Positions 17,648 through 46,900 of a DNA stretch of 64,000 bases are shown piece after piece. The notes beneath the pieces were generated by a model. That model ran no database searches. It was not told where the DNA came from and saw only the letters and a program-made list of their open reading frames with translations. The stretch's first letter is position 1. The number at the start of each line of letters is the position of its first letter. The translations under genes and the position numbers were made by a program. The DNA is from a virus (Duplodnaviria > Caudoviricetes), in IMG/VR virus record IMGVR_UViG_3300022594_000001. One strand, 5' to 3'.

Positions 17648-20600
17648 ATGGCAGAATTTAAAATACCACGAATTAGATTCACTTGGAAAGGTGACTGGGC
17701 GACTAGCACTGCATATACAAAAGACGATATTGTTCGTTATCACGGTAAGTCGTACGTCTGTTTGGTTGGACACACTGCTTCTGCGGACTTCAATACTGAT
17801 TTAGATTTTATTGATGTAACAACACAACCAGACACTCCTGCTCCAAAATGGGTATTGTGGTTTGATGGATATGAGTGGCGCAATCAATGGACGCCTAACA
17901 CTCTTTACAACATGGGTGATTATATCCAGTATGACAGTATCATTTATATTTGTACTAACAGTCACACATCTTCTGCTACGCTACTTACAGGAATTGAACC
18001 AGACTTAGTCAATTGGACTGTCTATGCCAGAACTGAAAACTGGACAAAAAATTGGACCGTTGGTACAAGATATAGATTAAATGATGTTGTTCGATATGGC
18101 GGCACATTATACCGTTGTAACACTGGACACGTGAGTGCCGCAACAGTTACTTTAGGACTAGAAGCTAATACTAGCTTTTGGGATGTTTTGCTGTATGCAT
18201 ACGACTGGAGCACTGATTGGACTGTATCAACCCGTTATAAATTAGGTGACGTTGTGCGTTACGGCGGAATTATTTACAAGTGTACACAAGGACATACTAG
18301 TGCAGCAACTGCTACTATTGGTATCGATCCAGACATTAGTAAATGGACGATTGTACATAACGGCATTGATTATAAATTTGCTTGGACTTCTAGTTTCCGT
18401 TACAAATTAAACGACATTGTAAAATACGGGGCAGATTTATATATTTGCTCAACCGCCCATACATCTTCAACTACATTTAGCACAACTAATTTTACTATTT
18501 GGCTTCCAGCTTTAGAATTTGCAAATTCTTGGAGCAGTGTAGTTTCTTATGTTAAGGGAGATATTGTAACTTATGGCGGTTACCAATACACTAGTAACAG
18601 TACTAATAATTTAAACAACGTACCATCAACAGATACTACTAACTGGACATTGTTAGTTAAAAATTATAACATTAGAAACGAATGGGATGTAACGGCTAAT
18701 TACAGAACTGGTGACTTAGTCCGTCGAGATGGATATCTTTACGTAGCTATTCTTGATAGTCAAGCACAAGAAACTACTAACATTACATACTGGACATTAG
18801 TAAATCCAGGTATGCAATGGAGAGGTCCGTGGAACAAATCAAATACATATGTTATCGGTGATGTTGTAACATTTTATTCTACTTCTTATATTTGTACAAG
18901 TAAAGTTAATTCAGTATCATCGCCTGACAACGATCCGGCACACTGGACAATTTATATCCGTGGTGATCAATTTGAAACATTGCAATATCAGGGTGATATT
19001 CAAACATACGATAATAAGCAATGGGCTGCTGTATCAATAGGGTCAGAAGGTAATTTACTTAAAGTTTCATCTAACGGTCAATCAATGTTACCAGTACCTG
19101 CATGGAATGATTGGGGTGTTATTGGTAACGTTTATTACGTAGCACCTACAGGAACTGATACTGTAACATACGGAAAAACTGTTACTACCCCGTGGAGAAC
19201 CGTTAAGTACGCATGTACTCAGGTATCTGGACCAGCAACTATCTTTATTAAAACTGGAACATATAGTGAATCACTGCCAATTAGTATTCCGGCCGGTGTT
19301 GCTCTAGTAGGCGATGAATTGAGAGGTGCAGTAATTCAGCCAGCTCGAGTAATTAACGCCGTTGCTACATCGTCTAGTTCTACTACTAACACAATCATTG
19401 TTAATACTACGATAGGCATGCAGGCGAACGATGCAATTCAAATTGTTGTTCCAACAATTACAGCAACTGTATTATCAACCTCATCAATTGGCAATAAAGT
19501 ATTTTTATCTAATACAATTGGAATGTATTCTGGAATGCCAATTATTTTCTCAGGAAACTCAGTTGGTAACTTAACTGCGAACACAACATATTACATTGTA
19601 GCTTACGATTCTGTAACTGCTTACATTACTATTAGTTTAACCGTAGGCGGATCTGTTGTAACTCAGCAAACTGCACAAGGTTCTATGGGTGTAACTGCTG
19701 GCGCATTTGCCGGACTTACTTCTGGGCAAACATATTACATTATCGGTTCATCAATTACCCCAACTAGTTTCCAAATATCGTTAACATCAGGCGGAACAAC
19801 CCCTGCACCATTAGCAGATTCTTCAAATCAAACAGCGGCGGTATACGGCGCAGACGGTATTAAAGATATGTTCTATGTTCGTAACGGTTGCGGTATTAGA
19901 AACATGACACTTCGTGGGCTAACTGGTGGTTTAAGTGCTGCTAACGTATATGGAACTAAGCGTCCAACAGCAGGATCATATGTAAGTTTAGATCCGGGAT
20001 CAGGACCTGGGGATTCGTCTGTTTGGATTACAACTAAGTCACCGTACGTACAAAACGTTACAACTTTTGGACAAGGATGCACTGGTTTAAAAATTGACGG
20101 TTCACTTCATAACAACGGAAATAGATCTATTGTTGCTAACGACTTTACACAAATTTTAAGTGATGGTATTGGAGCATGGTGTACTGGACATAATGCATTA
20201 ACTGAATTAGTTTCGGTGTTCTCATACTACGGACACTGTGGATATCTTGCAGAAGCTGGCGGGAAAATTCGTGCTACTAACGGTAACACTTCATACGGTA
20301 GTTACGGATGTGTTGCAGAGGGATTTGATAGTACTGAAGTTCCACTAAATGGAACAGTTAATAATAGAAATCAACAAGCACAAATTGCTGCGGCATTTAT
20401 TGGTGAAGCTACTAATAAGATTTTAAAATTAGAATTTAGCAATGCCGGACAAGGATACACTGGTGCAACATACACATTTTCTGGTGCTGGACAAAGTGCA
20501 AACGCTGTTCAGGACGAATTCAGAGATGGCGGCATTTTTGAAGGGCGCATTACTGGTACTGATTATAGTGCTGGAGGTTTAGGATATATTACCGCAGGTA

Positions 20601-23518
20601 ACCAAGCACAGGCAGGTAATACACAAACTATTACAATTGCATCAAACGATCAAAATACGTTTGCTAACTACAACGGTATGCGAGTTATTGTTACATCAGG
20701 TACTGGTGTTGGACAATATGGTTATGTAGCATATTACGACGCTGTTGGTAAAGTAGTGACTGTTGGTAGAGAAAGTATTACTGCATTACCATCTACTGCT
20801 ACTAACGGTACTAATAACACAATTCAAGTTAGTGACACATCACAATTCCAACCCGGACAGCCAATTGTTATTGTTCCAAACCAACAAACAACTACAGCTT
20901 ACAATACTGTGCATACTGTTGCTACAATGACTAGCGCATATATTTCTGGATTTACTCTTACTGTTGTAACAATGGGTGCTGGATCTATTGCAGTTGGTAT
21001 GGTATTAACTGGTGTCGGTGTAACTGCCGGAACATACATTACTGCAAATAACAGTGGCTCTGGATCAGGAAGTACTTGGACTGTTAGCTCTCAACAGACT
21101 GTAGGAAGCTCTGTTTCCCCTGTAACAATTACTGGTACTAACAATCTAGTAACATTAACTTCTAGTACAGGCATGTCAATTGGTGAACAAATTGTATTCA
21201 GCGGTACAACATTTGGCAACATTGTAAACGGTACAACATATTACATTAGTAATATTATCGGAAATCAAATTGCTGTTAGTGCAACATATCAAGGAAGCGT
21301 GTTTGCCGTTTCAAACGCAACTGGCTCTATGGGTGTAGTTGCTGGTGGTATGTTAGGCGGATTAAGCGCAGGAATTATATATTATGTTATTGCTAACAAC
21401 TACACTTCTAATTCTTTCTCTGTAAGTACATCATTAGGTGGCAGTGCTGCAACAATAACTACACAAACTTACGGTTCTAGCATGACAATTAATGCTATTG
21501 GTTGGGAACATGTTAATTCTGGAACACCAATAGTTTCGTTGCTAGATTCAACAAGCGTTTACTCAATTGAACCAGCTGTTAGATTTACATCACCAAATTA
21601 CACTGCTGTTAATGCGGTATTACCATCATCAGCAAATTGGGTCGGTATAGCATACGGCAAAGGCAAGTATGTTGCAATTAATTTAGCAGGTGGTGCAGCA
21701 ATATCAACTAATGGACAGAGTTGGACCGCAGGCGGATCATTGGGTGGCGCAAACTGGTCTAGTATTGCATATGGCAACAACTTATTTGTAGCAGTTAATT
21801 CTGGGTCTGGCATAGTTAGTACCTCTGCAGATGGGTTAACATGGACTTCGGGTACAACTGGAGGCGCTGGGTATACATCGGTCGCATGGGGTAACGGCAG
21901 ATTTATTGCTGTTGGCACAGGTACAGATGTAGCATATTCAAACGAAGGAACGAATTGGAGTCATTCAACAGTACCTAGTGGTTCATGGACTGATGCCGTT
22001 TATAGTAGCCTTGGAGTATGGGTAATTGTAGGTAGCAATAACAGTAGTACATCATTATATTCAACTGACTCGGGTGCTACATGGCAATCAAGTACGCTTC
22101 CGGCAACAGCAAACTGGTCTTCGGTGATTTGGGGTAATAGCAGATTTGTAGCAATTGCGTATGCTAGTGCAAATACAGCATATTCATTTGATGGCATTAA
22201 CTGGATTTCAAGCACATTGCCATCGACTGCAAACTGGTCATCTATCGAATACGGGCAAGGAATGTTCTTTGCAGTTGCATCGGGTACAAATACAGCAGCT
22301 TCATCTCAAGATGGATTATATTGGAAACCTAGAACGCTACCAACATCTACTACTTGGGGAAGCATTGCATTTGGTAATCCTAGTTCAAATCCTGGGTTTG
22401 TAGCAATTCCTAATATTAGTAATAATTTAGGTGCGTACATTATTGCCGGAGCAACAGCAAAAGGTAGAGCTTCAGTTGCAAGTAACAAAGTTACTTTAAT
22501 TAAAATATGGGAACCTGGAAGCGGGTATTCAACTTCAAGTTTACCTTCAGTGACAATAACTGATCCAAACCCAACATCTGCTGCCACTATTACTTGTCGT
22601 GTGGGTAATGGAGTATTAGGTAACCCAACATTCTTAAATCGTGGTACTGGTTATAGAACATCAACTACAAGCGTTGCAGTTACTACAGGCGACGGTTATG
22701 GTGACATTTACCAAAGCTCTAAATACTTAACAGTATCGGGCCTATCATCTTTACCAACACCGGGTGCTGCGTTAAACATTGCTAGCAATCCAAACCAGTA
22801 TAGAATTGTTGTTATTAATGATTTAGGTAATGGTACTGCACAATTTCAGGTAAGTCCACCATTAAGTATTGCACTAGCACCTGAGCACAGCACTATTGTT
22901 AGCATTCGACAAAAGTACAGCCAGTGTCGTATTACTGGACACGATTTCTTATTAATCGGAACAGGAAATCAAACAATTAGTAACTATCCTAACGTAGATG
23001 TTAACACAGCATTGTCATATCAGCAAATTGCTGAAAATAATGGCGGACGTGTTTTCCAAACAAGTACTGACCAAGATGGTAACTTTAAAGTTGGTAACTT
23101 ATTCGGGGTTCAACAAGCATCGGGTATTGTTACAATTAGTGCGGATCAATTAAGTTTAACTGGTTTACAAACCTTGTCACTTGGTGGATTTAGTTTAGGT
23201 ACAAATACTATCACTATTACTCAATTTAGTACAGACTCGTACTTTACAGCAAACAGCGACAGCGTAGTTCCAACACAGAAAGCGATTAAATCTTATATTG
23301 CTAGAAATATTGCAGGTGGTGGTGCAAACGCACAAGCTGGTGCAGTTGTTGCAGGTACATTTGGTGTAGGTGGACCAAATAAGATTTACTCATCTACACA
23401 AACACAGTTGTTTGTTAAGAACTCAATGAATATTAAGTATTCAGGCGGAAAAGGCGGTATCAACGGCACTATGCTTGCTAAGAGCTTCTTTGGACACGGA
23501 TTTAGCCCTAAAGGCTAA
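17648..23518 (+). CDS. Giant fibre/appendage protein: CBM5/12-like W-rich repeats, beta-helix motif and propeller-like repeats
   Basis: N-terminal repeats W...T.Y...D.V.Y.G..Y.C...HTS (about 17680-18960), a YVAPTGTD...IKTGTYSE...GDELR motif, and W.S(I/V)A(Y/W)G.G.F(V/I)AV repeats (about 21620-22400). Paralog of 23579. Confidence 0.75.
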   Translation: MAEFKIPRIRFTWKGDWATSTAYTKDDIVRYHGKSYVCLVGHTASADFNTDLDFIDVTTQPDTPAPKWVLWFDGYEWRNQWTPNTLYNMGDYIQYDSIIYICTNSHTSSATLLTGIEPDLVNWTVYARTENWTKNWTVGTRYRLNDVVRYGGTLYRCNTGHVSAATVTLGLEANTSFWDVLLYAYDWSTDWTVSTRYKLGDVVRYGGIIYKCTQGHTSAATATIGIDPDISKWTIVHNGIDYKFAWTSSFRYKLNDIVKYGADLYICSTAHTSSTTFSTTNFTIWLPALEFANSWSSVVSYVKGDIVTYGGYQYTSNSTNNLNNVPSTDTTNWTLLVKNYNIRNEWDVTANYRTGDLVRRDGYLYVAILDSQAQETTNITYWTLVNPGMQWRGPWNKSNTYVIGDVVTFYSTSYICTSKVNSVSSPDNDPAHWTIYIRGDQFETLQYQGDIQTYDNKQWAAVSIGSEGNLLKVSSNGQSMLPVPAWNDWGVIGNVYYVAPTGTDTVTYGKTVTTPWRTVKYACTQVSGPATIFIKTGTYSESLPISIPAGVALVGDELRGAVIQPARVINAVATSSSSTTNTIIVNTTIGMQANDAIQIVVPTITATVLSTSSIGNKVFLSNTIGMYSGMPIIFSGNSVGNLTANTTYYIVAYDSVTAYITISLTVGGSVVTQQTAQGSMGVTAGAFAGLTSGQTYYIIGSSITPTSFQISLTSGGTTPAPLADSSNQTAAVYGADGIKDMFYVRNGCGIRNMTLRGLTGGLSAANVYGTKRPTAGSYVSLDPGSGPGDSSVWITTKSPYVQNVTTFGQGCTGLKIDGSLHNNGNRSIVANDFTQILSDGIGAWCTGHNALTELVSVFSYYGHCGYLAEAGGKIRATNGNTSYGSYGCVAEGFDSTEVPLNGTVNNRNQQAQIAAAFIGEATNKILKLEFSNAGQGYTGATYTFSGAGQSANAVQDEFRDGGIFEGRITGTDYSAGGLGYITAGNQAQAGNTQTITIASNDQNTFANYNGMRVIVTSGTGVGQYGYVAYYDAVGKVVTVGRESITALPSTATNGTNNTIQVSDTSQFQPGQPIVIVPNQQTTTAYNTVHTVATMTSAYISGFTLTVVTMGAGSIAVGMVLTGVGVTAGTYITANNSGSGSGSTWTVSSQQTVGSSVSPVTITGTNNLVTLTSSTGMSIGEQIVFSGTTFGNIVNGTTYYISNIIGNQIAVSATYQGSVFAVSNATGSMGVVAGGMLGGLSAGIIYYVIANNYTSNSFSVSTSLGGSAATITTQTYGSSMTINAIGWEHVNSGTPIVSLLDSTSVYSIEPAVRFTSPNYTAVNAVLPSSANWVGIAYGKGKYVAINLAGGAAISTNGQSWTAGGSLGGANWSSIAYGNNLFVAVNSGSGIVSTSADGLTWTSGTTGGAGYTSVAWGNGRFIAVGTGTDVAYSNEGTNWSHSTVPSGSWTDAVYSSLGVWVIVGSNNSSTSLYSTDSGATWQSSTLPATANWSSVIWGNSRFVAIAYASANTAYSFDGINWISSTLPSTANWSSIEYGQGMFFAVASGTNTAASSQDGLYWKPRTLPTSTTWGSIAFGNPSSNPGFVAIPNISNNLGAYIIAGATAKGRASVASNKVTLIKIWEPGSGYSTSSLPSVTITDPNPTSAATITCRVGNGVLGNPTFLNRGTGYRTSTTSVAVTTGDGYGDIYQSSKYLTVSGLSSLPTPGAALNIASNPNQYRIVVINDLGNGTAQFQVSPPLSIALAPEHSTIVSIRQKYSQCRITGHDFLLIGTGNQTISNYPNVDVNTALSYQQIAENNGGRVFQTSTDQDGNFKVGNLFGVQQASGIVTISADQLSLTGLQTLSLGGFSLGTNTITITQFSTDSYFTANSDSVVPTQKAIKSYIARNIAGGGANAQAGAVVAGTFGVGGPNKIYSSTQTQLFVKNSMNIKYSGGKGGINGTMLAKSFFGHGFSPKG

Positions 23519-23578: not shown

Positions 23579-26500
23579 ATGGCTGAATTTAAACTAGGTA
23601 GAATCCGCTTTATTTGGAAAAATAACTGGTCTACAGGCGTAACATACTTAAAAGACGACATCGTAAGATACGGTGGAAAAACATACCTTTGTGTTGTTGG
23701 ACACACCGCAGATGCTGACTTTTATAATGACTTGGACAATGTTCCAACACGTTGGAATCAAGTATCCGACGGGTCCGAATGGAAAGACAATTGGACTACA
23801 AACCACTACTACAAAGTTAACGACTTAGTAAAGTATGGCGGAAGATTATACTTATGTAATACTGGACACACTAGTAATGCATCAGCTGATTCGAGTACAA
23901 GCCCTGATATAACTGCTGGATTAGAAGCAGATCAATCTAAGTGGGATTTATATGCCACTAGCTTTGATTGGAAAGGTAATTGGACTACTGGTACACGCTA
24001 CAAAGTAGACGATGTGGTTCGCTACGGCGGCATTTCATATGTATGTAACACCGGACACCACTCCGCATCAACTGCTAATACTGACAGTGATGGTTTAGAA
24101 GCAGACTTATCTAAATGGGATACATACGCTAAAGGATTTGATTGGATTGGAAACTGGAGTCCAAATTATCGTTACAAACAAAATGACGTTGTTCTATACG
24201 GTGGTACAACATATGTATGTAATACTGGACACCAATCAGCAGCTACAAATGCCCTTGGATTAGAAGCCGATCAAGGATTATGGGATTACTTCCATAAAGG
24301 TATTGTATTTTTAGGTAACTGGACTACTGGTACACGCTACAAAGTAAACGACATTGTAAAGCAAGGTTCGGACCTATGGATTTGCGTTACAAATCATACA
24401 AGCTCAGTATTCTTAACAGATCAGGCTAACTGGTCACTATTTGTTAACGGATTGGAATTTGAGAACAGTTGGAGTAACTCAACAACATATCAACCAGGCG
24501 ACATTGTTAGTTACGGTGGTTATGCATATGTTGCGGTAACAAATAACTTAAACAAAACTCCTACATCTAATCTAAGCGATTGGAATTTATTTACAACTGG
24601 TTTTAGCTTCCAAGGCGATTGGGCGTTATCTACTAGCTATCTAGTAGGACACGTAGTTCGACTAAACGGTTACACATATGTTTCATTATTAGATCATACT
24701 GCTGACTCAGTTAATTTACCCCCAAATCAAACATACTGGTCTCGTTTAAACAGTGGCGTTAAATGGGCTGCAACTGCTCAAACATTTACTAACGTAAGTG
24801 GTACTAATGTTATCGGTTCTGGTACTGGCGCTACATTTGACGTTACCTTAACAAATACAAAATACTCAGCAGTAGTACACACTGGATCAGCAGGATCTGG
24901 TTATGCTACTAATGACACTATTAAAATTTTAGGATCTTCATTAGGCGGTGTAACACCTGCTAACGATTTAATATTAACTGTAACAGCAAGTGGCGGTGCA
25001 GTTCAAACCGTTGTGTCAACAGGCTTTTCAGTAACATGGGCATCTGGTACTAGTTATGTTTTAGGCGACTCTGTTGCAATGGGTGTAAACAGCTATATTT
25101 GTATCCTTGCACACGTTGGTAGTTCAGGAAATCGTCCAGATAATGATACAACAGGTACATACTGGAACTTAATTTCAACCGGATCTATTTCAGCAATCTT
25201 AACCACACAGGGTGATACAATTTATTACGGTGGTGCTGGTCCAACACGTTTACCAATCGGTACAGACGGGCAAGTATTACGTGTAACAAATAACACACCA
25301 GCATGGTCTTATTTTGGTGTTGTTAACAACGTTGTATATGTTGCTAACTCTGGTACAGACATATCTGGTAATGGTCAAGGTTTGACTATTGATAAACCTT
25401 GGAAAACTGTACGTTATGCAGCAAAACAAATTGAAGACGGATATTTGAATCCTAATGCTGCTTCATTATTAGCTAAGAACAAACAGTTTATTGTTAAGGA
25501 ACTTAATAATTATGTACAAAATACATTTAAGTGTACAGTAAGTTCTGCATCTACTACATTATTCACATGTGATTCTACAGCAGGATTATATGTAGGTATG
25601 CCGATTAGTTTTACTGGTACAGTAGGCGGTGTAGCATCTGGTACAACTTACTATGTATTTGATATCCCGGGCGGAACTACTTTTGGTATTTCAAACACAT
25701 ACGGCGGTGGACGCAGAGGGCTTTCAACAGCTACTGGTTCTATGACAGGTAGCTATGTGTATGATCAAACAAGAACAGAACGTGATTCTGGTATTATTTT
25801 AGACGCATTGGTGTATGATATTAGTCATAGTGGCACATATCAAACAACACAAGCAGCATTAGCTTACTTTACTTCATCTGGTAGCTCATATGTTTCTGGT
25901 GTGTATGCGTATGATATTGGAGCATTTGTTAATACATTAAATTACATGAAAGTATTAACAGCTAACATTATTAATAACCAGCCTCCTGCAACTAACTACC
26001 AATCATCTAACGGTGTGTTACTTGCTAACCAAGCAATTCAAAATATTGATTATTCATTAACTACTGAATCAGGAGTTGCAACAACAATTTCTGCACTAGT
26101 TTCAATTATAACAACTGGATTATCGGCTGGTACAACTAGTGCTATTCCAGCAGTTATTAACCCAGGCACAACAATTTCAGTTAAGACAGGTACTTATAGT
26201 GAAATCCTCCCAATTGTTGTACCACGTAACACAGCCGTTGTTGGTGACGAATTGCGTTCAAGCGTTATTCAACCAGCTACTGCTAATATAAATTTAACTA
26301 ACGATAAACCAAAAACAATTAGTGTATTGACTAGAATGAAATCTATCATTCCTACATTGTTAACAAATGGAACTGTTACACCAACAAGTGGTAACACAAC
26401 TGCGCAAGCATATGTAAATGGTTTTTCAGGAAGCACAACAGCAGTATCTCGTATTAGTGCTAACAGTACAGTAATTGATACTATTCTTTCCGGTGGATTG

Positions 26501-29500
26501 GGATCAGTACCTTCATTTACATTAACAACGCCAACTGGCGGTACAGGTAATGCCTATACAGCAGGATACGCTAATGCTGCCCGTTTAGTTTATGCTAATA
26601 AGTCATTCTTGCAAGCTGAAGTAACAGCATACATGGCTCTTAACTATAGTTCATTGTGGTCTAGCTTAGGAGCTGGCGGTCAAGCTAACTGTACACGTGA
26701 TATCGGCTACCAAGTTGATGCACTACGTTACGACTTAACATACGGCGGTAACTTAGAAACAGTTGTTACAGCACGTTCATACTACAGCAACGGCACATTT
26801 GTTGAAGCAAGTAATGAAAAGACAGCAGCTTTAGCAGTACAAACAAGATTACAAGCAATTATTTCTAACATTGCTCAAGGTATTGCAATTACTCGTACAT
26901 CAGGTAACGTTGCTACTCAAGACGTTAGTGGTACAGGTGGCTCATCAGCTGCTGGTACACAAGCAGTTAACCGTGTTCAAGAAGTTTACAATACAATTAA
27001 TACTGGTTTAACACCGACTACTATTGTTCCTGATACAAGTTGGGTTTCGAGTGATTTGTTAGCTGCATTTAATCAAATTCAAGCAACAAAGTCATTAATA
27101 CAAGCTGGTGCAATTGCAGCTATTAATAAACAATACCCAACATTAGTTTACAATACTTCAACATGTTCGCGTGACGTTGGATACATTATTGATGCATTGT
27201 GCTATGACTTTATGTTTAACAGCAACTTCCGTAGTGCTAAAGCAGCAATGGCTTACTACAGAGCAACAAGTTCTGCACAGATTGTAATTAACAATCAGTT
27301 ATCACAGACTCGTTATACAAACTCATACATTAGCACAGCATTACAGCATTTAGCTACTGGAACAGTTGGCGACACAGGAAGCACAGCAGCAATTAGTTCT
27401 ATCCTAACTAATGCAGCAACTATGACACGTATTTTAAATACCGGTCTAAGTTCATTACCTACATTTACATTTACTAACCCAACTGGCTACAACGTAGGGT
27501 TCTTAACTGGTTACGGTGATGGTAAAGCACAGATTGTACAAAACTATCAGTTTATTAAAGACGAAATCAGTGCATATTTAAACACAAACTACAATTCAGT
27601 TTGGACTGCACTAGGAGCTGGTGGACAGGCTAACTGTCAACGTGACGTTGGATATCTATTAGATGCGTTGCAATACGATATGACGTACGGTGGCAACACC
27701 CAGACATTAATTGCAGGTAGTGCATATTTCTCATACGGTACATTGGCTATTGCAAGTACAGAAAAGACAGCTACTATAAACGCATACGGAAGATTACAAA
27801 CTGTTATCAATTACATTGTAACAGCAAATACAAGTTGGACAAAATCAACTGGCAACGTTACTTCACAGGTAACTACAGGTACGGCAGGCAGCGCCGGAGC
27901 AAGTACATTTGCTCAAGCTCGTATAGGTGATATTGTAAGCTGGATTACAAACGGTACAGCGCCATCAACTGTTTCACCAACAGCAGCAATAGCATTGGCA
28001 AGTACTGCACTGCAAAACGGTTATAACGCATTGCAAACTTATAAAACTGAAATCCAAGGCGACACCGTTGGTTGGGTAAACAAGTTCTATCAATCAATGA
28101 ACTTTACATCTGCAACATGTTACCGTGATGCAGGATATATTGTTGATGCATTAGCATACGACTTAGTATTTGGTACAAACTTTAATTCGATTAAAGCCGG
28201 TATGGCATACTACAGAGCAACAACAAGTGCTCAGTATGTAATTGCAAATCAATTAGCAGCAGAAATTGGTTCAATTAATTTCATTGCACAAAAAGCTAAG
28301 AGAATTGCAGCATACGGATCTGCCGCTCAGATTACTACAACTATTGATGATATTATTTTATCAATTGCAGGTGTAGTAACTCCGACAGCAACAGCTACTG
28401 CGGTAGGTGGTAATATTACAGTTTCTAGTACATCTGGATTATATGTCGGTATGTCAGTTGTTGCAAGTGCGGCACTTGGTGGCATTGCTAATGGATTTAC
28501 CTACTGGGTCAGCTCGATTGTTGATAGTGTAACAATTCAAATTACAAATACATACGGAAGCGCAACTCCGATTACTTTATCAAATGCCACAGGTAGCATT
28601 ATATTAACAATCGGTGGATTATATGAATCATGCGGTACAAACGTATATAACAACGTATTGTCCACAATTAACGGCGCCGAAATTTTACGTGCTAACAAGG
28701 CGTTCTTATCAAATGAAGCAACTGCTTGGGTAACACAAAGCTACGGTGGAACAGCAACTGCAACTACTGCATCTAATGGACGCATTACTACAGGTTCTGC
28801 ACACAATTTAACAGTTGGGGACCCTGTTGTATTTACAGGTACCACATTTGGTGGTGTATCAGTTAATACAACTTATTATGTTTTAACAACACCAACTACA
28901 ACGGCATTTACTATTACAACAACTCAAGGCTCATCTACACCTGTAGCATTATCTGATGCAACTGGCACAATGACAGTTCGTTATAGTTTTAGCACTTCAC
29001 TATGTCAGCGTGACATGAGTACTTACGTTGACGCACTAATTTATGATGTATGCTACTTAGGTAACTACAAGTCATTAAGAGCTGCAACATTATATAAAAA
29101 CGCCGTTAACGGTTCATTATTATCAGACATGTTCTACTTACGTAACGGAACTGGTGTACGTAACATGACATTAAGTGGTTTAACTGGAACACTAACTACT
29201 GCTAACAGTTATGGAACCAAACGTCCAACTGCTGGTGCATATACATCGTTGGACCCAGGATTTGGACCAACCGACAGCAACGTGTGGATTACACCACGTT
29301 CTCCATATGTACAAAACGTTACAACATTTGGTACAGCTTGCGTTGGATGTAAGATTGACGGAGCATTACACGTAGGTGGTAACCGTTCTATCGTTTCAAA
29401 CGACTTTACACAAGTTCTAAGTGACGGTATCGGTGTATGGTGTACTGGGCATAATGCGTTAACAGAGCTTGTTTCAGTGTTCTCATACTACAATTATGCA

Positions 29501-32500
29501 GGTTACTTGGCAGAATTAGGTGGTAAGATCCGTGCTACTAACGGTAACAACTCATACGGAACATACGGTTCATTAGCCGAAGGTGTTGATACTTATGAAG
29601 CACCGGTAACAGCTACAATTAATAACCGCTATTACCAAGCACAGATTACAAACGTTGTTACAAACGGTACAGATAATATCTACAGACTTGAATTCCAAAA
29701 CGCAGGCTCTGGATACAATACTGCTACTTACTCATTGAGCGGTACTGGTTACAACGCAATTATTGATAAACCAGAATTCCGTGACGGTGCTGTATACGAA
29801 ACTCGTTTAACAGCAAACGGTGCTAACTATGTGTCTATTTCAAACGTAGCACAGGGCGGCAATGCAACAAGCATTACAATTGCTGCAACTGACCAAGCAA
29901 TTAGTGCTGCTTATATTGGTATGAGAGTTTTGATTACTTCAGGTACAGGCGTTGGACAAACTGGTTACTTCTTAACATACAACTCAGGTACAAAAGCAGG
30001 TACAGTTGCTAAAGAAAGTTTTAATACAATAAACGTAACAGCAGCTGGATCTAACTTGTTAACTGTAGCAAACACTGCTACATTGTATGCTAACATGCCG
30101 ATTCAATTTACTGGATCAATCCTAACAGGTTGCACATTAACAACAGGCACAACATATTATGTAATTGGATCGACTATTACGTCAACACAATTTAGCGTTG
30201 CTGCTGGTTCAGGCGGAACAACTCCGCTAAGTGTTGGTACTAGTTCAGGCGGTGGCCCGATGACTATCAACGCTGTTGGTTGGGATCATATGATTACTGG
30301 TACATCTGTTGTTGCTAATTTAGACTTAACAACAGCGTACATTATTGAACCAAGATTAGTATACGCTAGCCCTTCATTCTCAGCAACCGCTGGTACTATT
30401 ACTAGTGCGGCATATTCTGATATGGTTTACGGCGACACTATTGCTACATACAACGGTTCAGGTTCAGCAGGTGTAGCACACACAGGCGGTTCAGGTAGCA
30501 ATGCAACATTTACAGTTGTTAGATCAGGTGTTGCTTACACAGTCACTGGTAACGTTGCTGGTACTAACTACAAATATGGCGACACTTTAACTATTGCTGG
30601 AACATTGTTAGGCGGAACAAGCCCTGCAAACGATATAACTATCACAGTTAATAACGTTAATGCAAGCACAGGCGCAGTACAAAACTTTACATACACTGGT
30701 ACTGGTGTAGGTGGTTATTTTGTAACAGTAACTGGTGGCAGTACAGCTACACAAATTAGTTCTAATGGTACTACATTTGCAGCGGGTGGTGTATTGACAT
30801 CAAGTACGCTTTGGAATTCAGTAGCATATGGTAACGGACGTTGGGTTACAATTAGTAACTTAAACGGTATATCTAATTTCACTACAGATCCTACCGCAGC
30901 ATGGACACTTGGAGGAACCCTTCCAACAACATCAGCTGGTTGGCAAGCTATTTGCTACGGAAACGGTGCATTTATGGCTATACAGACTGGTAGCACAAAT
31001 GCAGCATATTCGACAAATGGTGTAACATGGTACGCAACTTCAGCACTACCAGCAAATACAGCATGGACTGGTGTTGCTTATGGTAACGGTGTTTATGTTG
31101 CAGTAGCAAGTGGTGGCACACAGGCTGCAATTAGTACAGATGGACTTTCATGGACTAGCAAAACATTGCCAACAACTGCAAACTGGTCAAGTGTAACATT
31201 TGGTAAAGGTGTGTTTGTAGCAGTTGCAACTGGTAGCGCAATTACTGCTTACAGTAAAGACGGTATTACTTGGGTACAATCAGTTCCTGGTATGCCAACA
31301 AGTTCAACATGGTCTAAAGTACGCTACGGAAACGGTGTTTTTGCAGCAATTACATCTGGATCAGGAAACGTACTAGCAAGCTCAGAAAACGGTAAAGATT
31401 GGACAGCGAAAACCCTAGCAACTACACAAGCATGGGCAGCAATTGCATACGGCAATCCAAGCTCAACACCATTATGGGTATGTATGGGTACTTCTACTAC
31501 AGTATCGAACTACTTAACATTAGGTTGTACTGCACAAGCTCGTGCTAAGGTAACTAACGGTGCAATTAGTGAAATTAGAATGGTAGAACCTGGATCAGGA
31601 TACACTTCTATACCGTCACTATCGATTGTTGATCCTAACACAACACAGTCTGCTACTATTGGAATTAGAACTGGTGTTGGCGCATTAGCTAACCCAACAT
31701 TTAGCAACAGAGGTTTACAATACGCAACGGCAACTGCTACAGTTTTGGGTAACGGTTATGCAGATATGTATCAAGCAGGTTACTACGTGAACGTAGCTGG
31801 ATTATTGTCGCAGCCAACAGCTGGATCAAACATCCAAATTGCACTAAACGGTAACTATTATAAACTTGTACAAGTAAGCAATTACTTAGGAACACAAGGA
31901 AACAGCCAAGGTGGATCTAGTCCATATACAGCAAGATTCCAAATTAGTCCTGCGTTAACAGCTTCAAATGCTCCTGCGCACAGTACAGCAGTAACAATGC
32001 GTATTAAGTATTCACAAGTTCGTTTAACAGGACATGACTTCTTAAGTATTGGTACTGGTGGTACAGCAACAACTAATTACCCAAATACCCCAACACAGTT
32101 ACCTGATGTAACTAAACAAACTGTTGGTAACGGCGGCGGACGTGTATTCTACACAGCTACTGACCAGGACGGTAACTTTACAGTTGGTACACTATTCAGC
32201 GTTCAACAAGCAACTGGTGTTGCAAGTATTAATGCTGATGCGTTTAACTTAGCTGGTTTGAACTCACTAACATTGGGTTCAGTAGCTTTAGGTGGAACTG
32301 GTGCAACAATTACTAGCTTCTCAACAGATCAATATTTCACTGCTAACAGTGATAATATTGTTCCAACACAGAAGGCGATTAAAGCATACATTGCTAGCCA
32401 AATTGGTGGCGGATCTAGTGCTTTGAACGTAAATACACTAACTGCTGGTGTTATCTATATTGCAGGTAATAGTATTAGTACTACTACTGGCGTACAGATT

Positions 32501-32578
32501 AACGTATCAGCAACAATGAACTTCACTGGCGGTATTAACGGGTTGCCAGTAGCAATGGACTTCTTACTTTTAGGATAA
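23579..32578 (+). CDS. Giant fibre/appendage protein (2999 aa) with the same scaffold as 17648 plus helical C-x-R-D repeats
   Basis: MAEFKLGRIRFIWK start, CBM-like repeats, six (C/E)xRD..Y..DAL.YD repeats, propeller-like repeats at about 30790-31480, and a C-terminus shared with 17648. Confidence 0.75.
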   Translation: MAEFKLGRIRFIWKNNWSTGVTYLKDDIVRYGGKTYLCVVGHTADADFYNDLDNVPTRWNQVSDGSEWKDNWTTNHYYKVNDLVKYGGRLYLCNTGHTSNASADSSTSPDITAGLEADQSKWDLYATSFDWKGNWTTGTRYKVDDVVRYGGISYVCNTGHHSASTANTDSDGLEADLSKWDTYAKGFDWIGNWSPNYRYKQNDVVLYGGTTYVCNTGHQSAATNALGLEADQGLWDYFHKGIVFLGNWTTGTRYKVNDIVKQGSDLWICVTNHTSSVFLTDQANWSLFVNGLEFENSWSNSTTYQPGDIVSYGGYAYVAVTNNLNKTPTSNLSDWNLFTTGFSFQGDWALSTSYLVGHVVRLNGYTYVSLLDHTADSVNLPPNQTYWSRLNSGVKWAATAQTFTNVSGTNVIGSGTGATFDVTLTNTKYSAVVHTGSAGSGYATNDTIKILGSSLGGVTPANDLILTVTASGGAVQTVVSTGFSVTWASGTSYVLGDSVAMGVNSYICILAHVGSSGNRPDNDTTGTYWNLISTGSISAILTTQGDTIYYGGAGPTRLPIGTDGQVLRVTNNTPAWSYFGVVNNVVYVANSGTDISGNGQGLTIDKPWKTVRYAAKQIEDGYLNPNAASLLAKNKQFIVKELNNYVQNTFKCTVSSASTTLFTCDSTAGLYVGMPISFTGTVGGVASGTTYYVFDIPGGTTFGISNTYGGGRRGLSTATGSMTGSYVYDQTRTERDSGIILDALVYDISHSGTYQTTQAALAYFTSSGSSYVSGVYAYDIGAFVNTLNYMKVLTANIINNQPPATNYQSSNGVLLANQAIQNIDYSLTTESGVATTISALVSIITTGLSAGTTSAIPAVINPGTTISVKTGTYSEILPIVVPRNTAVVGDELRSSVIQPATANINLTNDKPKTISVLTRMKSIIPTLLTNGTVTPTSGNTTAQAYVNGFSGSTTAVSRISANSTVIDTILSGGLGSVPSFTLTTPTGGTGNAYTAGYANAARLVYANKSFLQAEVTAYMALNYSSLWSSLGAGGQANCTRDIGYQVDALRYDLTYGGNLETVVTARSYYSNGTFVEASNEKTAALAVQTRLQAIISNIAQGIAITRTSGNVATQDVSGTGGSSAAGTQAVNRVQEVYNTINTGLTPTTIVPDTSWVSSDLLAAFNQIQATKSLIQAGAIAAINKQYPTLVYNTSTCSRDVGYIIDALCYDFMFNSNFRSAKAAMAYYRATSSAQIVINNQLSQTRYTNSYISTALQHLATGTVGDTGSTAAISSILTNAATMTRILNTGLSSLPTFTFTNPTGYNVGFLTGYGDGKAQIVQNYQFIKDEISAYLNTNYNSVWTALGAGGQANCQRDVGYLLDALQYDMTYGGNTQTLIAGSAYFSYGTLAIASTEKTATINAYGRLQTVINYIVTANTSWTKSTGNVTSQVTTGTAGSAGASTFAQARIGDIVSWITNGTAPSTVSPTAAIALASTALQNGYNALQTYKTEIQGDTVGWVNKFYQSMNFTSATCYRDAGYIVDALAYDLVFGTNFNSIKAGMAYYRATTSAQYVIANQLAAEIGSINFIAQKAKRIAAYGSAAQITTTIDDIILSIAGVVTPTATATAVGGNITVSSTSGLYVGMSVVASAALGGIANGFTYWVSSIVDSVTIQITNTYGSATPITLSNATGSIILTIGGLYESCGTNVYNNVLSTINGAEILRANKAFLSNEATAWVTQSYGGTATATTASNGRITTGSAHNLTVGDPVVFTGTTFGGVSVNTTYYVLTTPTTTAFTITTTQGSSTPVALSDATGTMTVRYSFSTSLCQRDMSTYVDALIYDVCYLGNYKSLRAATLYKNAVNGSLLSDMFYLRNGTGVRNMTLSGLTGTLTTANSYGTKRPTAGAYTSLDPGFGPTDSNVWITPRSPYVQNVTTFGTACVGCKIDGALHVGGNRSIVSNDFTQVLSDGIGVWCTGHNALTELVSVFSYYNYAGYLAELGGKIRATNGNNSYGTYGSLAEGVDTYEAPVTATINNRYYQAQITNVVTNGTDNIYRLEFQNAGSGYNTATYSLSGTGYNAIIDKPEFRDGAVYETRLTANGANYVSISNVAQGGNATSITIAATDQAISAAYIGMRVLITSGTGVGQTGYFLTYNSGTKAGTVAKESFNTINVTAAGSNLLTVANTATLYANMPIQFTGSILTGCTLTTGTTYYVIGSTITSTQFSVAAGSGGTTPLSVGTSSGGGPMTINAVGWDHMITGTSVVANLDLTTAYIIEPRLVYASPSFSATAGTITSAAYSDMVYGDTIATYNGSGSAGVAHTGGSGSNATFTVVRSGVAYTVTGNVAGTNYKYGDTLTIAGTLLGGTSPANDITITVNNVNASTGAVQNFTYTGTGVGGYFVTVTGGSTATQISSNGTTFAAGGVLTSSTLWNSVAYGNGRWVTISNLNGISNFTTDPTAAWTLGGTLPTTSAGWQAICYGNGAFMAIQTGSTNAAYSTNGVTWYATSALPANTAWTGVAYGNGVYVAVASGGTQAAISTDGLSWTSKTLPTTANWSSVTFGKGVFVAVATGSAITAYSKDGITWVQSVPGMPTSSTWSKVRYGNGVFAAITSGSGNVLASSENGKDWTAKTLATTQAWAAIAYGNPSSTPLWVCMGTSTTVSNYLTLGCTAQARAKVTNGAISEIRMVEPGSGYTSIPSLSIVDPNTTQSATIGIRTGVGALANPTFSNRGLQYATATATVLGNGYADMYQAGYYVNVAGLLSQPTAGSNIQIALNGNYYKLVQVSNYLGTQGNSQGGSSPYTARFQISPALTASNAPAHSTAVTMRIKYSQVRLTGHDFLSIGTGGTATTNYPNTPTQLPDVTKQTVGNGGGRVFYTATDQDGNFTVGTLFSVQQATGVASINADAFNLAGLNSLTLGSVALGGTGATITSFSTDQYFTANSDNIVPTQKAIKAYIASQIGGGSSALNVNTLTAGVIYIAGNSISTTTGVQINVSATMNFTGGINGLPVAMDFLLLG
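23981..24346 (+). repeat. Exact 27-bp direct repeat between CBM-like units
   Basis: TGGACTACTGGTACACGCTACAAAGTA at 23981-24007 and 24320-24346. Confidence 0.85.
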
Positions 32579-37197: not shown

Positions 37198-38997
37198 TTA
37201 GTTAGCAATTTTAACTAGTTTGCCTAATTCAGGCACATACAAGTATTCAATATCACTCTTTGCAAGAGTATCTAATGCATCTTCTAACGTTTCAACAAGC
37301 GGATCACCACCTAAGTTAAAACTTGTATTAAAGATAATAGGTACGCCTGTACGCTTATAGAACGCATTGATTAAATCATGGTAGTGTTTGTTTTGCTCTT
37401 GTGTAACAGTTTGGATGCGACATGTGCCGTCTACGTGAATAATAGCAGGAATCTTTGTTTCGATACCTGGCTGGCAGTTAACAGCATACATCATATACGG
37501 ACTGTCTTTCATACCACGCAAATCAAACCATTCATGTACGTGTTCTTGTAGAATAGATCCAGCAAATGGACGGAAATATTCGCGACGCTTTACTAAGTTA
37601 ACAAAATCTTTACCGTCTTCGTATGTTGGATTAAACAAGATACTGCGATTACCTAATGCACGTGGACCATTTTCTGAACGTCCTTGATAGAAACAAACAA
37701 TATTTTTGTTCATTAACAAATCAACAACGTCTTCGTTAGTAGCATCAGTAATTTCTGCATTGTGTGATGCTGCAAACTTTGTAAGATCATCTGCGGTATA
37801 GTTATACTTAAACCCTAGATATAGTCCATCTTTACTATAATCGTTTGTGCTTAATGGCATCATGTCTTTCCAGAACATAAGTGCTGCACCGATAGCAGTA
37901 CCAGCATCATTGCTAATTGGCTCTACATAAATTTCAATGCCATCTTCTTTTAACCCATTTAGGTAAAAGTAGTTAGCAACACAGTTTAACCCATAACCTC
38001 CGCTAATGACAACCTTCTTTTGCCCAGTCATTTCACTAGCCTTGCGAATTAAGCGTAACACTTGTTCTTGTGTTTGTGTTTGGCAAGCATATGCTAAATC
38101 TCTACGATTTTCTAATGTGGTGATATCATCTGCATTTGAGTCTTGTAAGAATTCAAATAATCCTTGATTAATTTGAGCACCGTTGGGATATGTCGGAACA
38201 ACTAAGTTTCTGTTAGACAATGGTGCAATACCAGTTTCGTCAAACAGTTGAGGAATTGCAGGATTTTCTTTTCCATATGGAAATAATCCCATTGTTTTAC
38301 CTGCTTCAATGCTCGACCATCCACAGAATGTTGTAACGGCTTCGTAAATCTTTGTAATACCAGCACGATCAGTAATTAGTGCTTCGTGTGTTGAACCAGG
38401 TTCGTCATACATTGTGCTATCAAAATTACTAACTAGTGCTCCTGGGTTAGGGCCTCGTAAACCGATGTGTTTATATTTTGTTTTAAAATTAGCAGGATAT
38501 GAACAATCGTAAATACTTTCAGTTTCCCATCCAGTAACGTTCTCGCCGTTAATTACCAATGGCAAGAATGTGCCTGCACCATCGACAATTAGTGCTGCTG
38601 CTTCTTCAAATCCTGAGCGATAAAACGCACAAGCGGCATGTAATTTATGATGAACATGACTCAAGTCAACTACTTGTGGATGATCAAATGGATTTTGTCC
38701 ACGTTTAATCAACCCTAATTTTCTTGCAAGACCAGTGTAAACATCATCACCCGAAAAGTCAACTCGCCCAGCAGTGTCACTTAATTTCTGTGTATGTGCA
38801 ATAACCATGTAGTCTAGTCTATCAGTATAGTCTAGGATTTTTAACATAGCGGCGTATGGTCCGCCGTCATATTTGTGTCTACTAATGCGTTCTTCTTCGA
38901 TTGCAAAAACAACTTCTCCATTTTTAAGAAGACAAACACCACTATTGTGTCCCCTAGCTATGCCTGCAATCCAAATATCTTTGTTGTTATCTGACAT
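37198..38997 (-). CDS. Carbamoyltransferase, NodU/CmcH family
   Basis: Motifs GHNSGVCL..NGE...AIEEERISRHK, HHKLHAACAF, VDGAG, GKTMGL.PYG, SGGYGLNCVAN, NDAGTAIGAA, GPRALGNRSIL, KRREYFRPFA, HVDGTCRIQTV and NTSFN. Confidence 0.95.
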   Translation of the reverse strand: MSDNNKDIWIAGIARGHNSGVCLLKNGEVVFAIEEERISRHKYDGGPYAAMLKILDYTDRLDYMVIAHTQKLSDTAGRVDFSGDDVYTGLARKLGLIKRGQNPFDHPQVVDLSHVHHKLHAACAFYRSGFEEAAALIVDGAGTFLPLVINGENVTGWETESIYDCSYPANFKTKYKHIGLRGPNPGALVSNFDSTMYDEPGSTHEALITDRAGITKIYEAVTTFCGWSSIEAGKTMGLFPYGKENPAIPQLFDETGIAPLSNRNLVVPTYPNGAQINQGLFEFLQDSNADDITTLENRRDLAYACQTQTQEQVLRLIRKASEMTGQKKVVISGGYGLNCVANYFYLNGLKEDGIEIYVEPISNDAGTAIGAALMFWKDMMPLSTNDYSKDGLYLGFKYNYTADDLTKFAASHNAEITDATNEDVVDLLMNKNIVCFYQGRSENGPRALGNRSILFNPTYEDGKDFVNLVKRREYFRPFAGSILQEHVHEWFDLRGMKDSPYMMYAVNCQPGIETKIPAIIHVDGTCRIQTVTQEQNKHYHDLINAFYKRTGVPIIFNTSFNLGGDPLVETLEDALDTLAKSDIEYLYVPELGKLVKIAN

Positions 38998-43922: not shown

Positions 43923-46900
43923 ATGGCAAAGAAACGAATAGCAAATTACGCATTTTTTCCAGGGGTGTCAAGTGACAGCAACGCATACCCTAATGCGTAT
44001 TCTTTGTTGAAAGCTAATAAAACATTTATTACAAAAGAAGCATCAGCATACCTTGCTTCAAAAGTAGTATCCGACACTGCACAAAATTTATATCCAAATG
44101 CAGTAGCACTTTTAACAGCTAACAAACAATACATCCTTGATGAAATTAGTGCATGGACGGCTTATCAGACTACTAATGCATTAGTTAGCAGCCCGTTTTA
44201 CGGTTATACATATGGTGCAACTGAAATTGCAAAATGTAAACGAGATATGGGATATCTCATCGATGCATTAATATATGATATTCGATATGGCGGAAATGAG
44301 CAAGTTAGCTACGTAGCAAGCCAGTATTACCTAAGCGGTGTTGTACAACTAATTAACGTTCCAGTTGAGTTACTAATTCAAACACAACTTTGGAATTTAA
44401 TTAAAAACTATATTCTTACAAAAACCTTATATTCATCGCAGCAAAGTCCTGTAACAAGTACACAAACTACCTCGGGCAATACTGTTGAAACTGGCGCAAC
44501 AACTGCGGCAAATACATTATCAACAATTACTTATAATGTAATTAACGGCGGACTTTCTACACTACCGACATTAGTCTACTCAAGTTTTAATTTTGCTGGA
44601 TACACATACGACACTAGCAAGTGCGAACGAGATGTTGGTTTTATTTTAGATGCGTATGCAAATGATTTACGTTACGGTGGAAATTTCCAAACACGATTAA
44701 TTTCTAGCAGATATTGGGACGGTGAGCGTCCACAGATTATTGGTGATAGAAAAAGTGAAATTTACACGCATCAATTTATTAGAGATTTAATTAACCACAC
44801 AGTATTTTTTGGTTCAATTAACACAATAAAATGCGAACGAGATATCGGTTACTTATTAGATGGTGTTAAGTATGACATTGCACTTGGTACTAATTATAAC
44901 TCTGTGTTCTTGGGATTAGCAGAAGACAATTCGCAAGATCTTAGCGCCACAGTTATTACAGCAATTCAAACTGCGCAAACAACTGTTGCTAATTTATCAG
45001 CAGTATCTAGCAGTACAACAGCAACTACAAGATCCAATTCGTTTTTTACACAAGTATTAACTATTGCACAAAATGGTCCATCGAGTGCGAGTCTAGTAAA
45101 CTATACTAACCCAACAAATGCCACAAATAGCCAAATGGCTGCTAACGATAAACTTGTTAATAACAAAGCATTTATCCAAGCAGAAGTAAATGCATGGGTT
45201 GCATTAAATTATCCATCATCGACTCATGATCCAGTTAAGTGTTCTAGAGACATTGGTTATGCAATTGATGCATTAGCATATGACATTTTATACGGCGGAA
45301 ACAGTGCCACTTATCGACAAGCAAAATTCTTCTTTTATGGTTTTGCAGACGGATCATCGGGCATTGATGCAACTCATACTGCCGTTACTATTGCCGCATA
45401 CAACTATTTTAAATCAATTGTTGACAACATTGTACAGGGTCAAACTGTAACTCCAACAACTGCTGGAACAAATCCAAACACACAAAGCCAGATAACGTCT
45501 GGTAATAACGCATCATCATCTGATGCTACTATTTGTCAAAACCTAGTACAAATTACAACAAACGTAATTAACGCAGGTACACAGCCAGCCGCATTAGCTT
45601 ATTTGGCAACTATAACACTAACATATCCTGATGTTAGTTGGTCTACTACTGCATTAAAAGCAGCAAAAACTGCAATTGAAACAAACCGTGCTGCTATTAT
45701 ATCAGTATCAGCAGACTATGTTCCTTTACAAAATTCTTATCCACGACAATTGTTAAATGGCATTGCTGGAGAAGACGGGTCAGATGTTGTTATTACAAAC
45801 CTAGCATCAATTGTAACTTCAGTAATTCAAAACGGATTAACTAGCTTACCTACATTAGTAAATGGTGTTACAACTATTAAGGTACAAGGACAATATACCC
45901 TTGATAAATTGTTACTAATTACTAATGCGTCAAACAATCAATTCTTGTATAACTTTAGTGATCCAACATTAGGTGCAATTGCAACATTTAATGGACCCTA
46001 TGATAGTAACGGCCATTTCCAAGATGAGCAGTTCCCTCAGTTCTTACAGACATCAGACTATGTAACTACCCTTGTACTAAAAGCAGATACCTCGTTGTGC
46101 AGTTCAACTGATGATGTACAAATTTTTGTAGAATCAGAAGAACAAAAAACTCGTCCATATGATTTTGGTACAGATGCTATTGAACGTATGCGTGTTGCTC
46201 CTCCGCAGTCAATGCTTGACGCTGACTTTGAATACGGATTACAGCCAACTAAGTGGCAGGCAATTGGTATTGCTCGCGGATATCCGTCAGTGTACGAAAT
46301 TCCAGGATCAGATACAGCAGTTCTTACAGTTGTAACTGATGCAAGTGCAGGCACTGGTGGTATTGGTGAATCTTTGATTACAGTAACTACAGCGTCGGCA
46401 CACGGGTTTAGCGTTGGAACACCGATTACTATTCGCTCATTAGCTAACACAGTATCTGGATTTAATAGAGCAGAAGGTACATTTATTATTATTAGTGTTC
46501 CGACTCAAACAACATTTACCTTTTACGCCGCAGCAAAAGTAGGTACAACTAACGGACAAATTCTTGCAACCACTTACACGCAGTTACGTAAAGGTGCGTT
46601 CTATACCGGTGCATCGATTGGCACACCAACGTTGAGCGTTTATAATAACGGACAAGTTGGATCGTTCACTACTAAATTTATTACTCCGGCAGGTTCTGGA
46701 CAGATCGCCGTGCAAGGTGCTATGCCAACACTTGGAGTCCCATTATCTGTAACTGGTTTAACTACTGGTACGCAAGTTACTGGTACTGTTGGAACCGGTG
46801 GACAAGTAGCTACTGCTACTGTTGGTGCTCCTGTTAATATCGGTGATACTTCGATTGCCGTAGCGAGTACAACGGGAATCCTTGAAGGGATGGCAATTGA

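Follow-up and report, generated by a model that had tools for sequence, protein, structure and literature searches.

Phycobiliprotein-like globin domains in giant fibre proteins of an uncultured jumbo phage, and their possible role as bilin carriers

The IMG/VR virus record IMGVR_UViG_3300022594_000001 comprises 111 kb, with an estimated completeness of about 30%, and the part of it analyzed in our study is a stretch of 64 kb, referred to here as the window. One open reading frame (ORF) of the window, P0001 (positions 23579..32578, + strand), encodes a protein of 2999 amino acids whose translation and whose PHROG, Pfam and paralog matches mark it as a fibre-type virion protein. Our study identified in P0001 a set of helical domains which, when homology and fold are taken together, are almost certainly true, distant homologues of the phycobiliproteins. 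These domains belong to the bilin-binding-globin clade, which includes the phycobiliproteins, the bilin domain of ApcE, the BBAGs and the photoglobins. Covalent bilin binding by those domains that bear the motif cysteine is the best-supported mechanism and, on balance, the one towards which we lean; the virus particle may thus carry a bilin pigment.

The original prediction had described six phycobiliprotein-like repeats of the type C-x-R-D in P0001, the first of them with Thr in place of Cys. A regular-expression scan of the translation located all six at residues 733, 1038, 1196, 1353, 1514 and 1809, and both their sequences and their nucleotide positions (25775, 26690, 27164, 27635, 28118 and 29003), including the Thr, were borne out. 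The Cys is kept in five of the six units and the R-D pair in all of them. A wider core pattern, R-D-x5-D-A-x2-(Y/F)-D, was observed six times in P0001 against an expectation of 3e-5 from composition (1/20,000 shuffles). An iterated profile search (jackhmmer) defined the unit as an all-helical segment of about 155 residues with the motif on helix E. Only four units are contiguous, with two subtypes in alternation, and all four are complete domains on the + strand: unit 2 (aa 992-1144; 26552..27010), with C-T-R-D at aa 1038 and an E-value of 6e-45; unit 3 (aa 1145-1300; 27011..27478), with C-S-R-D at aa 1196; unit 4 (aa 1310-1461; 27506..27961), with C-Q-R-D at aa 1353; and unit 5 (aa 1461-1600; 27959..28378), with C-Y-R-D at aa 1514.

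The resemblance of the C-x-R-D pattern to a bilin attachment site, on which the prediction was built, was reproduced by HMMER and hhalign, in both of which the motif aligns residue for residue with Cys84-Arg86-Asp87 of C-phycocyanin alpha. When unit profiles were searched against the sequences of the PDB, the best match was C-phycocyanin alpha (E 0.005-0.01), with the Cys placed on Cys84 and an alignment that extends from helix A/B through the motif. Only profiles reached phycocyanin: a phmmer search of the PDB with the raw 1200-residue segment returned nothing, and other family scans of the units (Pfam, NCBI-style) gave nothing useful. For the profile-profile comparison, we assembled 106 CpcA and 96 CpcB sequences from cyanobacterial loci. 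The hhalign comparison of the unit profile with the 106 CpcA sequences gave a probability of 94.3% (P 1e-7) over 86 columns that cover helices A to G; this fell to 91.8% when alpha and beta were combined and to only 9% for beta by itself. The controls, 20 column-shuffled profiles and one reversed profile, scored 8-18, versus 48.5 for the real profile.

The predicted structures lead to the same family. AlphaFold2 models were built from alignments of homologues (121 two-unit segments and 143 single units), and both were all-helical, with a pLDDT of 89.6 and a pTM of 0.84 for the two-unit model and of 94.9 and 0.89, respectively, for unit 3 modelled alone. In Foldseek searches of the PDB with both models, phycobiliproteins occupied nearly all of the top 50 rows (TM 0.55-0.73, probability 1.00), and VIA-align superposed the models on phycobiliproteins with Z 15.3-16.5 and an rmsd of 2.0-2.6 Å over 127-150 residues. 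In an unfiltered search of 48,161 representative chains, independent of Foldseek, the first eight ranks (Z 12.4-14.2) went to phycobiliproteins or the ApcE bilin domain, followed by the bilin-binding photocobilins (Z 11.1-11.9), by sensor globins and RsbR (Z 9-11.6) and by haemoglobins (Z about 7), values that must be read with the caveat that helical folds inflate Z. This ranking mirrors the published phylogeny of bilin-binding globins (PMC10151467), and it places the units, as modelled, structurally nearer to globins that bind bilins than to those that bind heme. Of the globin-type fold, helices A, B, E, F', F, G and H were all recovered in the models. The N-terminal X-Y helical hairpin, which serves alpha-beta pairing, was not seen in the predicted single-unit model, where residues 1-13 are non-helical, and most of the VIA-align alignments begin at phycobiliprotein residue 14-34. 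A search of the AlphaFold DB clusters with the two-unit model was uninformative, returning mixed helical proteins at low TM and one ‘Phycobilisome protein’ at rank 18. The models, Foldseek, VIA-align, the unfiltered search and the profile alignments all sustain the proposal of globin/phycobiliprotein-fold domains, and the fold returned is globin-like and not some other helical bundle. Because sequence profiles, profile-profile comparison and structure aligners agree, and because the null controls score far lower, we regard the homology as genuine.

The remaining units of P0001 are not contiguous with these four, and they show how the array is set into the fibre. The segments had been proposed to be missing from the paralog encoded at 17648-23518 and to be inserted at two points of a common scaffold, and BLASTP against this 1956-residue protein confirmed it. 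Residues 865-900 of P0001 pair with residues 531-566 of the paralog, and residues 1711-2996 with residues 593-1948, leaving two extra stretches of P0001 without a counterpart, at residues ~628-858 and ~901-1850; the beta-helix scaffold itself is common to both proteins. Unit 1 (aa 634-854; 25478..26140, + strand) starts with its B helix at aa 634, has helices E-H at 725-854 and carries T-E-R-D; its motif position is Ala in the orthologue P0013, in which the Cys is present in units 2-6. The second insertion is opened by an orphan C-terminal half-unit (aa 902-983; 26282..26527, + strand), a jackhmmer domain match to profile positions 89-155 that directly follows the beta-helix rung at 865-900. 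At the other end lies unit 6 (aa ~1700-1845; 28676..29113, + strand), of which only the N-terminal half is present: its B helix begins at 1706, C-Q-R-D is found on helix E at 1809, the profile match covers positions 44-88 only, and after helices A, B and E the beta-helix scaffold resumes. We infer that the orphan half and the N-terminal half of unit 6 meet, closing the inserted array as one split domain. In units 1 and 6, a small beta domain separates the conserved N-K-x-F-I-x-x-E helix (B) from the motif helix E. Such beta domains, with the signature G-(L/M)-x-V-G-M-...-T-T-Y-Y-V, lie at aa ~660-728, 1600-1680 and 1715-1800 of P0001 (window ~25560-25760, 28380-28620 and 28720-28980), that is, within the B-E loops of units 1 and 6 and in the stretch that separates unit 5 from unit 6, and they are repeated in the paralog.

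Special attention was given to the conservation of the motif, which was evaluated in 957 near-complete units, about 25% identical on average, from 150 giant proteins. Of these units, 93% have the Cys, 94% the Arg, 98% the Asp, 99% a further Asp(+14), 97% Tyr(+30) and 82% Asn(+20); the Cys is thus not a variable position among homologues. A full-library search found the domain in 712 representative clusters, where nearly all of the proteins have 1000-6400 residues, with as many as 25 matched stretches in one protein. In a set of 50,697 records of cultured phages, 353 have the domain; all of these are cyanophages, and the proteins that contain it bear the annotation structural, tail fibre or gp7 baseplate wedge initiator. 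The cultured GAP32-like relatives in this set have neither the domain nor a ferredoxin-dependent bilin reductase (FDBR). It is also carried by seven of the 10 IMG/VR contigs selected by the relatedness of their major capsid protein (MCP) to that of the phage studied here. The domain is a widespread building block of giant fibre or baseplate proteins in T4-like cyanophages and in an uncultured freshwater clade of jumbo phages, with a putative location in the virion that is taken from the ‘structural protein’ annotations of homologues in cultured cyanophages.

The genes for bilin synthesis were examined in contigs selected by independent routes. When the DNA form of the motif was the sole criterion, 50 contigs were selected; in the two of them that are complete genomes, genes for heme oxygenase (HO) and FDBR lie side by side, and one of the two also has CpeT. 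Conversely, selection by FDBR alone gave 18 long contigs, and each of the six with a completeness of 30% or more has the domain (6/6) and HO (6/6). Among these are G061, which is 96% complete and has an MCP 94% identical to that of this phage, and G041, which is 100% complete and has an MCP 86% identical to it; both combine the domain with HO and FDBR. In the complete 364-kb genome of G041, the HO and FDBR genes overlap (G041:C1:285530-289078) and are flanked by a gene for a ClpS-like adaptor and by an unannotatable ORF of 369 aa. The relatives selected by MCP, all at most 60% complete, yielded no FDBR. No HO, FDBR, CpeT or CpeS was found in the 111-kb record itself, an absence that is uninformative at a completeness of about 30%, since the region syntenic to the cassette lies outside what was recovered: the record has no genes in common with the 60 kb around the HO-FDBR cassette of the complete relative.

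It is important to consider that this association has exceptions in both directions. The Pelagibacter phage Mosig has HO and a PcyX-like FDBR (the closest cultured one, with 49.6% identity) and no detectable unit, so its bilin must go elsewhere. P-SSM2, a further carrier of bilin genes, also lacks the unit by profile search, and these two phages together indicate that a phage with bilin genes need not encode this acceptor. A strict rule by which bilin genes imply the domain was rejected on their account, and so was the reverse rule, that the domain implies the phage’s own bilin genes, since FDBR was found in only 27 cultured phage records versus 353 with the domain. The link between bilin genes and the domain is hence frequent and not obligatory, and common descent may account for part of it within each clade. 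In Mosig (MT647606.1, 36653-43330), the HO and PcyX-like reductase genes stand with those of a ferrochelatase and three 2OG-Fe(II) oxygenases, all annotated as ‘putative’, directly upstream of the neck genes.

The mechanism that we propose would proceed as follows. Late in infection, a linear tetrapyrrole would be loaded in the cytoplasm onto each Cys-bearing domain and joined through its ring A to the Cys as a thioether, with the propionates and the pyrrole nitrogens held by the Arg and Asp. The pigment would be supplied by a phage cassette of HO and FDBR such as that seen in the near-complete relatives, though not in this fragment. Since neither G041 nor G061 has a recognizable lyase of the S- or T-type, attachment, if any, would probably be autocatalytic, as it is in BBAG-1/-3 and ApcE. 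Each chain of the assembled fibre would then bear about five bilins, and the candidate roles of these bilins are light-gated adsorption, a folding cofactor and photoprotection, among which light sensing is weakly favoured.

Several observations weigh against this proposal. The missing lyase and the lack of bilin genes in the record are two of them, together with the three relatives of 53-62% completeness in whose recovered parts no FDBR was found, and with Mosig and P-SSM2. About 7% of the units, including unit 1 of P0001, have no Cys, and some proteins (P0043) are mostly Cys-less and retain R-D. On the side of detection, hmmscan with PF00502 found no match in six unit-sized pieces at E-values up to 10, and the six-frame search of the record with this family reached 14 bits (gathering threshold 22.2) in the first unit of a second ORF, 43923-51563, a reciprocal match that speaks for the relationship but stays sub-threshold; the Foldseek E-values are likewise weak (0.01-0.4). 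Finally, we know of no report of coloured phage particles.

Part of this evidence would be expected if the units were apo structural spacers, that is, descendants of bilin globins that now act as rigid helical modules which lengthen or decorate the fibre, with C, R and D kept for fold stability, for example through an internal salt bridge and helix capping. This alternative, which we regard as possible without being likely, accords with the Cys-less units and proteins, with the two phages that have bilin genes and no domain, with the fact that most domain-bearing Synechococcus phages have no FDBR of their own, and with tandem arrays that resemble structural repeats and reach about 25-35 copies in giant fibre proteins. 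However, purely structural repeats rarely hold a Cys-Arg-Asp triad at 93-98% while the remainder drifts to about 25% identity, this triad is the exact set of ligand-contacting residues of the homologous family (PMC10151467), and the domain co-occurs with HO and FDBR in a clade that has no photosynthesis genes. A second alternative is another ligand, such as heme, a molecule of the host surface or a metal ion that the conserved Asp residues would hold, or else a redox role in which the Cys forms inter-chain disulfides or a switch. The fold is globin-like, heme-binding sensor globins are the next-best structural matches, and Asp(+14) and Asn(+20) have no counterpart in phycobiliproteins, all of which would suit such a role; nevertheless, there is no conserved His among the near-invariant columns (C, R, D, D and Y), bilin-binding globins outrank heme globins structurally, and each domain has a single conserved Cys with no conserved partner, which makes this explanation improbable. 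Chance or convergence, by which an unrelated helical bundle would merely carry a motif that resembles the bilin site, could appeal to the weak Foldseek E-values, the inflated Z-scores and the sub-threshold PF00502 score, but it is barely credible when sequence profiles, profile-profile comparison and two structure aligners independently choose one family with the motif in register, when the hhalign null controls lie far lower and when the match spans helices A to G, beyond the motif.

If bilins are indeed bound, phage adsorption is where a function might be sought. Among cyanophages, adsorption in the dark is reported to fail for P-HM1 and P-HM2 and to occur for P-SSM2 and for the podovirus P-SSP7, and light-sensitive receptors or tail fibres have been suggested (Liu et al., PMC6628666); as summarized there from earlier work, the light-dependent adsorption of S-PM2 is independent of host photosynthesis. 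We compared the five phage records (NC_015284, NC_015280, NC_006820, NC_006883 and NC_006882) with the unit profile, which matched five times in P-HM2, four times in P-HM1 and nine times in S-PM2, with none in P-SSM2 or P-SSP7. The presence of the domain tracks light-dependent adsorption in 5/5 phages, a correspondence that is not significant, as it amounts to effectively two independent positives and is confounded with host and morphotype; the link is suggestive. Light-gated adsorption as the function is accordingly attractive, weakly supported and, in our judgement, rather unlikely. We are equally doubtful of the complete model, in which covalent bilins on the fibre domains would be virion photoreceptors and light would gate the conformation of the fibre and hence adsorption. 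If it were true, this would be the first light-sensing component of a virion, it would account for an adsorption of cyanomyoviruses that depends on light and not on photosynthesis, and it would provide a phage-encoded acceptor for the unexplained HO-FDBR cassettes in phages of non-photosynthetic hosts.

The assignment of P0001 as a fibre- or baseplate-attached virion protein is a prediction from homology (tail-fibre PHROG families and CBM_5_12) and gene context. Its N-terminus contains eight CBM_5_12 repeats in the Pfam scan, its C-terminal part is a tail-fibre module (phrog_9851 tail fibre, 4e-61), and genes near it encode baseplate wedge, sheath, portal and major head proteins. Both giant paralogs open with 7-8 CBM_5_12 repeats (window 23579-24800 and 17648-18900, + strand; Pfam E 8e-38 and 6e-36), an unusual position given that the N-terminal end of a fibre protein is normally proximal to the particle. 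At aa ~2330-2650 of P0001 (window ~30570-31530) there are repeats of the form W-x-x-(V/I)-A-Y-G-N-G-x-(F/W)-V-A, also present in the paralog, that resemble beta-propeller blades. A gene for a Nol-like carbamoyltransferase (phrog_1601, E 4e-166) is found among the fibre genes on the opposite strand (window 37198-38997, - strand), and its family corresponds to an auxiliary metabolic gene class in PHROGs.

With respect to affiliation, the MCP of the phage shares 68-72% identity with its counterparts in GAP32, CBB, Rak2-type and related jumbo phages of heterotrophs. On this basis, the phage is classified as a member of an uncultured freshwater clade of GAP32/Rak2-like jumbo phages and not as a cyanophage. 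No psbA was found in the 111-kb record at its completeness of about 30%, and megablast against cultured phages gave no match.

The domain is not restricted to P0001 within the window. Four further units, with K-C-x-R-D at aa 105, 234, 304 and 440 (44079..45590, + strand), form the N-terminus of a 2546-aa virion protein encoded by ORF 43923-51563, which belongs to phrog_5838. Since these units open a protein that is otherwise unrelated to P0001, the phycobiliprotein-like module has been shuffled between virion proteins.

A full-text search of the literature found no description of a phycobiliprotein-like domain in a virion protein, and the domain is unnamed in the cyanophage annotations that we examined. 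HO and reductases of the PcyA/PcyX type have been reported in phages of apparently non-photosynthetic hosts, where their purpose was stated as unknown, and the question was still open in a 2024 paper on phage tetrapyrrole genes. Here, many copies of a bilin-type globin are encoded by the phage itself, in a virion protein, and the cassette is found in the clade to which it belongs, which makes two questions directly testable, namely why phages hold bilin-synthesis genes and what makes adsorption light-dependent. The phycobiliprotein/BBAG superfamily also gains a new and abundant branch, of relevance to how phycobiliproteins arose, and the domain might yield small self-labelling fluorescent tags.

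Comparison with known systems places the phage units among four groups. The giant proteins of T4-like cyanophages (PHROGs 4527, 5342 and 701; S-PM2p091 and P-HM2 gp7) contain the same domain family and are virion proteins by annotation; those phages infect hosts that make bilins, whereas the capsid of the present one is GAP32/Rak2-like and its 111-kb record has no psbA. BBAG-1 and BBAG-3 of heterotrophic bacteria have a CXRD motif, attach bilins to themselves without lyases and are encoded by genes linked to HO/FDBR (Rockwell et al. 2023, PMC10151467). They share with the phage units the CXRD motif and the condition of phycobiliprotein paralogs outside photosynthesis, and they differ, by a comparison based on their published description, in being small stand-alone cellular proteins. 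The phycobiliproteins (C-phycocyanin alpha, PF00502) are the best structural and sequence matches of the units, with which they share helices A, B, E, F', F, G and H, the K-C-x-R-D-(I/V)-G-Y motif on helix E and the G-G that follows this helix. However, they are free alpha and beta subunits that build discs, whereas the phage units are covalently chained in tandem in a virion fibre, have their own invariant Asp(+14) and Y-G-G-N turn, show no X-Y hairpin in the single-unit model and fall below the Pfam threshold. Finally, the bilin domain of ApcE (ranks 4-7 in the unfiltered search, Z 12.8-14.0) resembles the units in architecture, as a phycobiliprotein-like domain inside a large multidomain protein. 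Bilin attachment in ApcE is autocatalytic; only one domain of this kind is present in that protein, which serves a photosynthetic antenna, whereas the phage carries six plus four copies in virion proteins.

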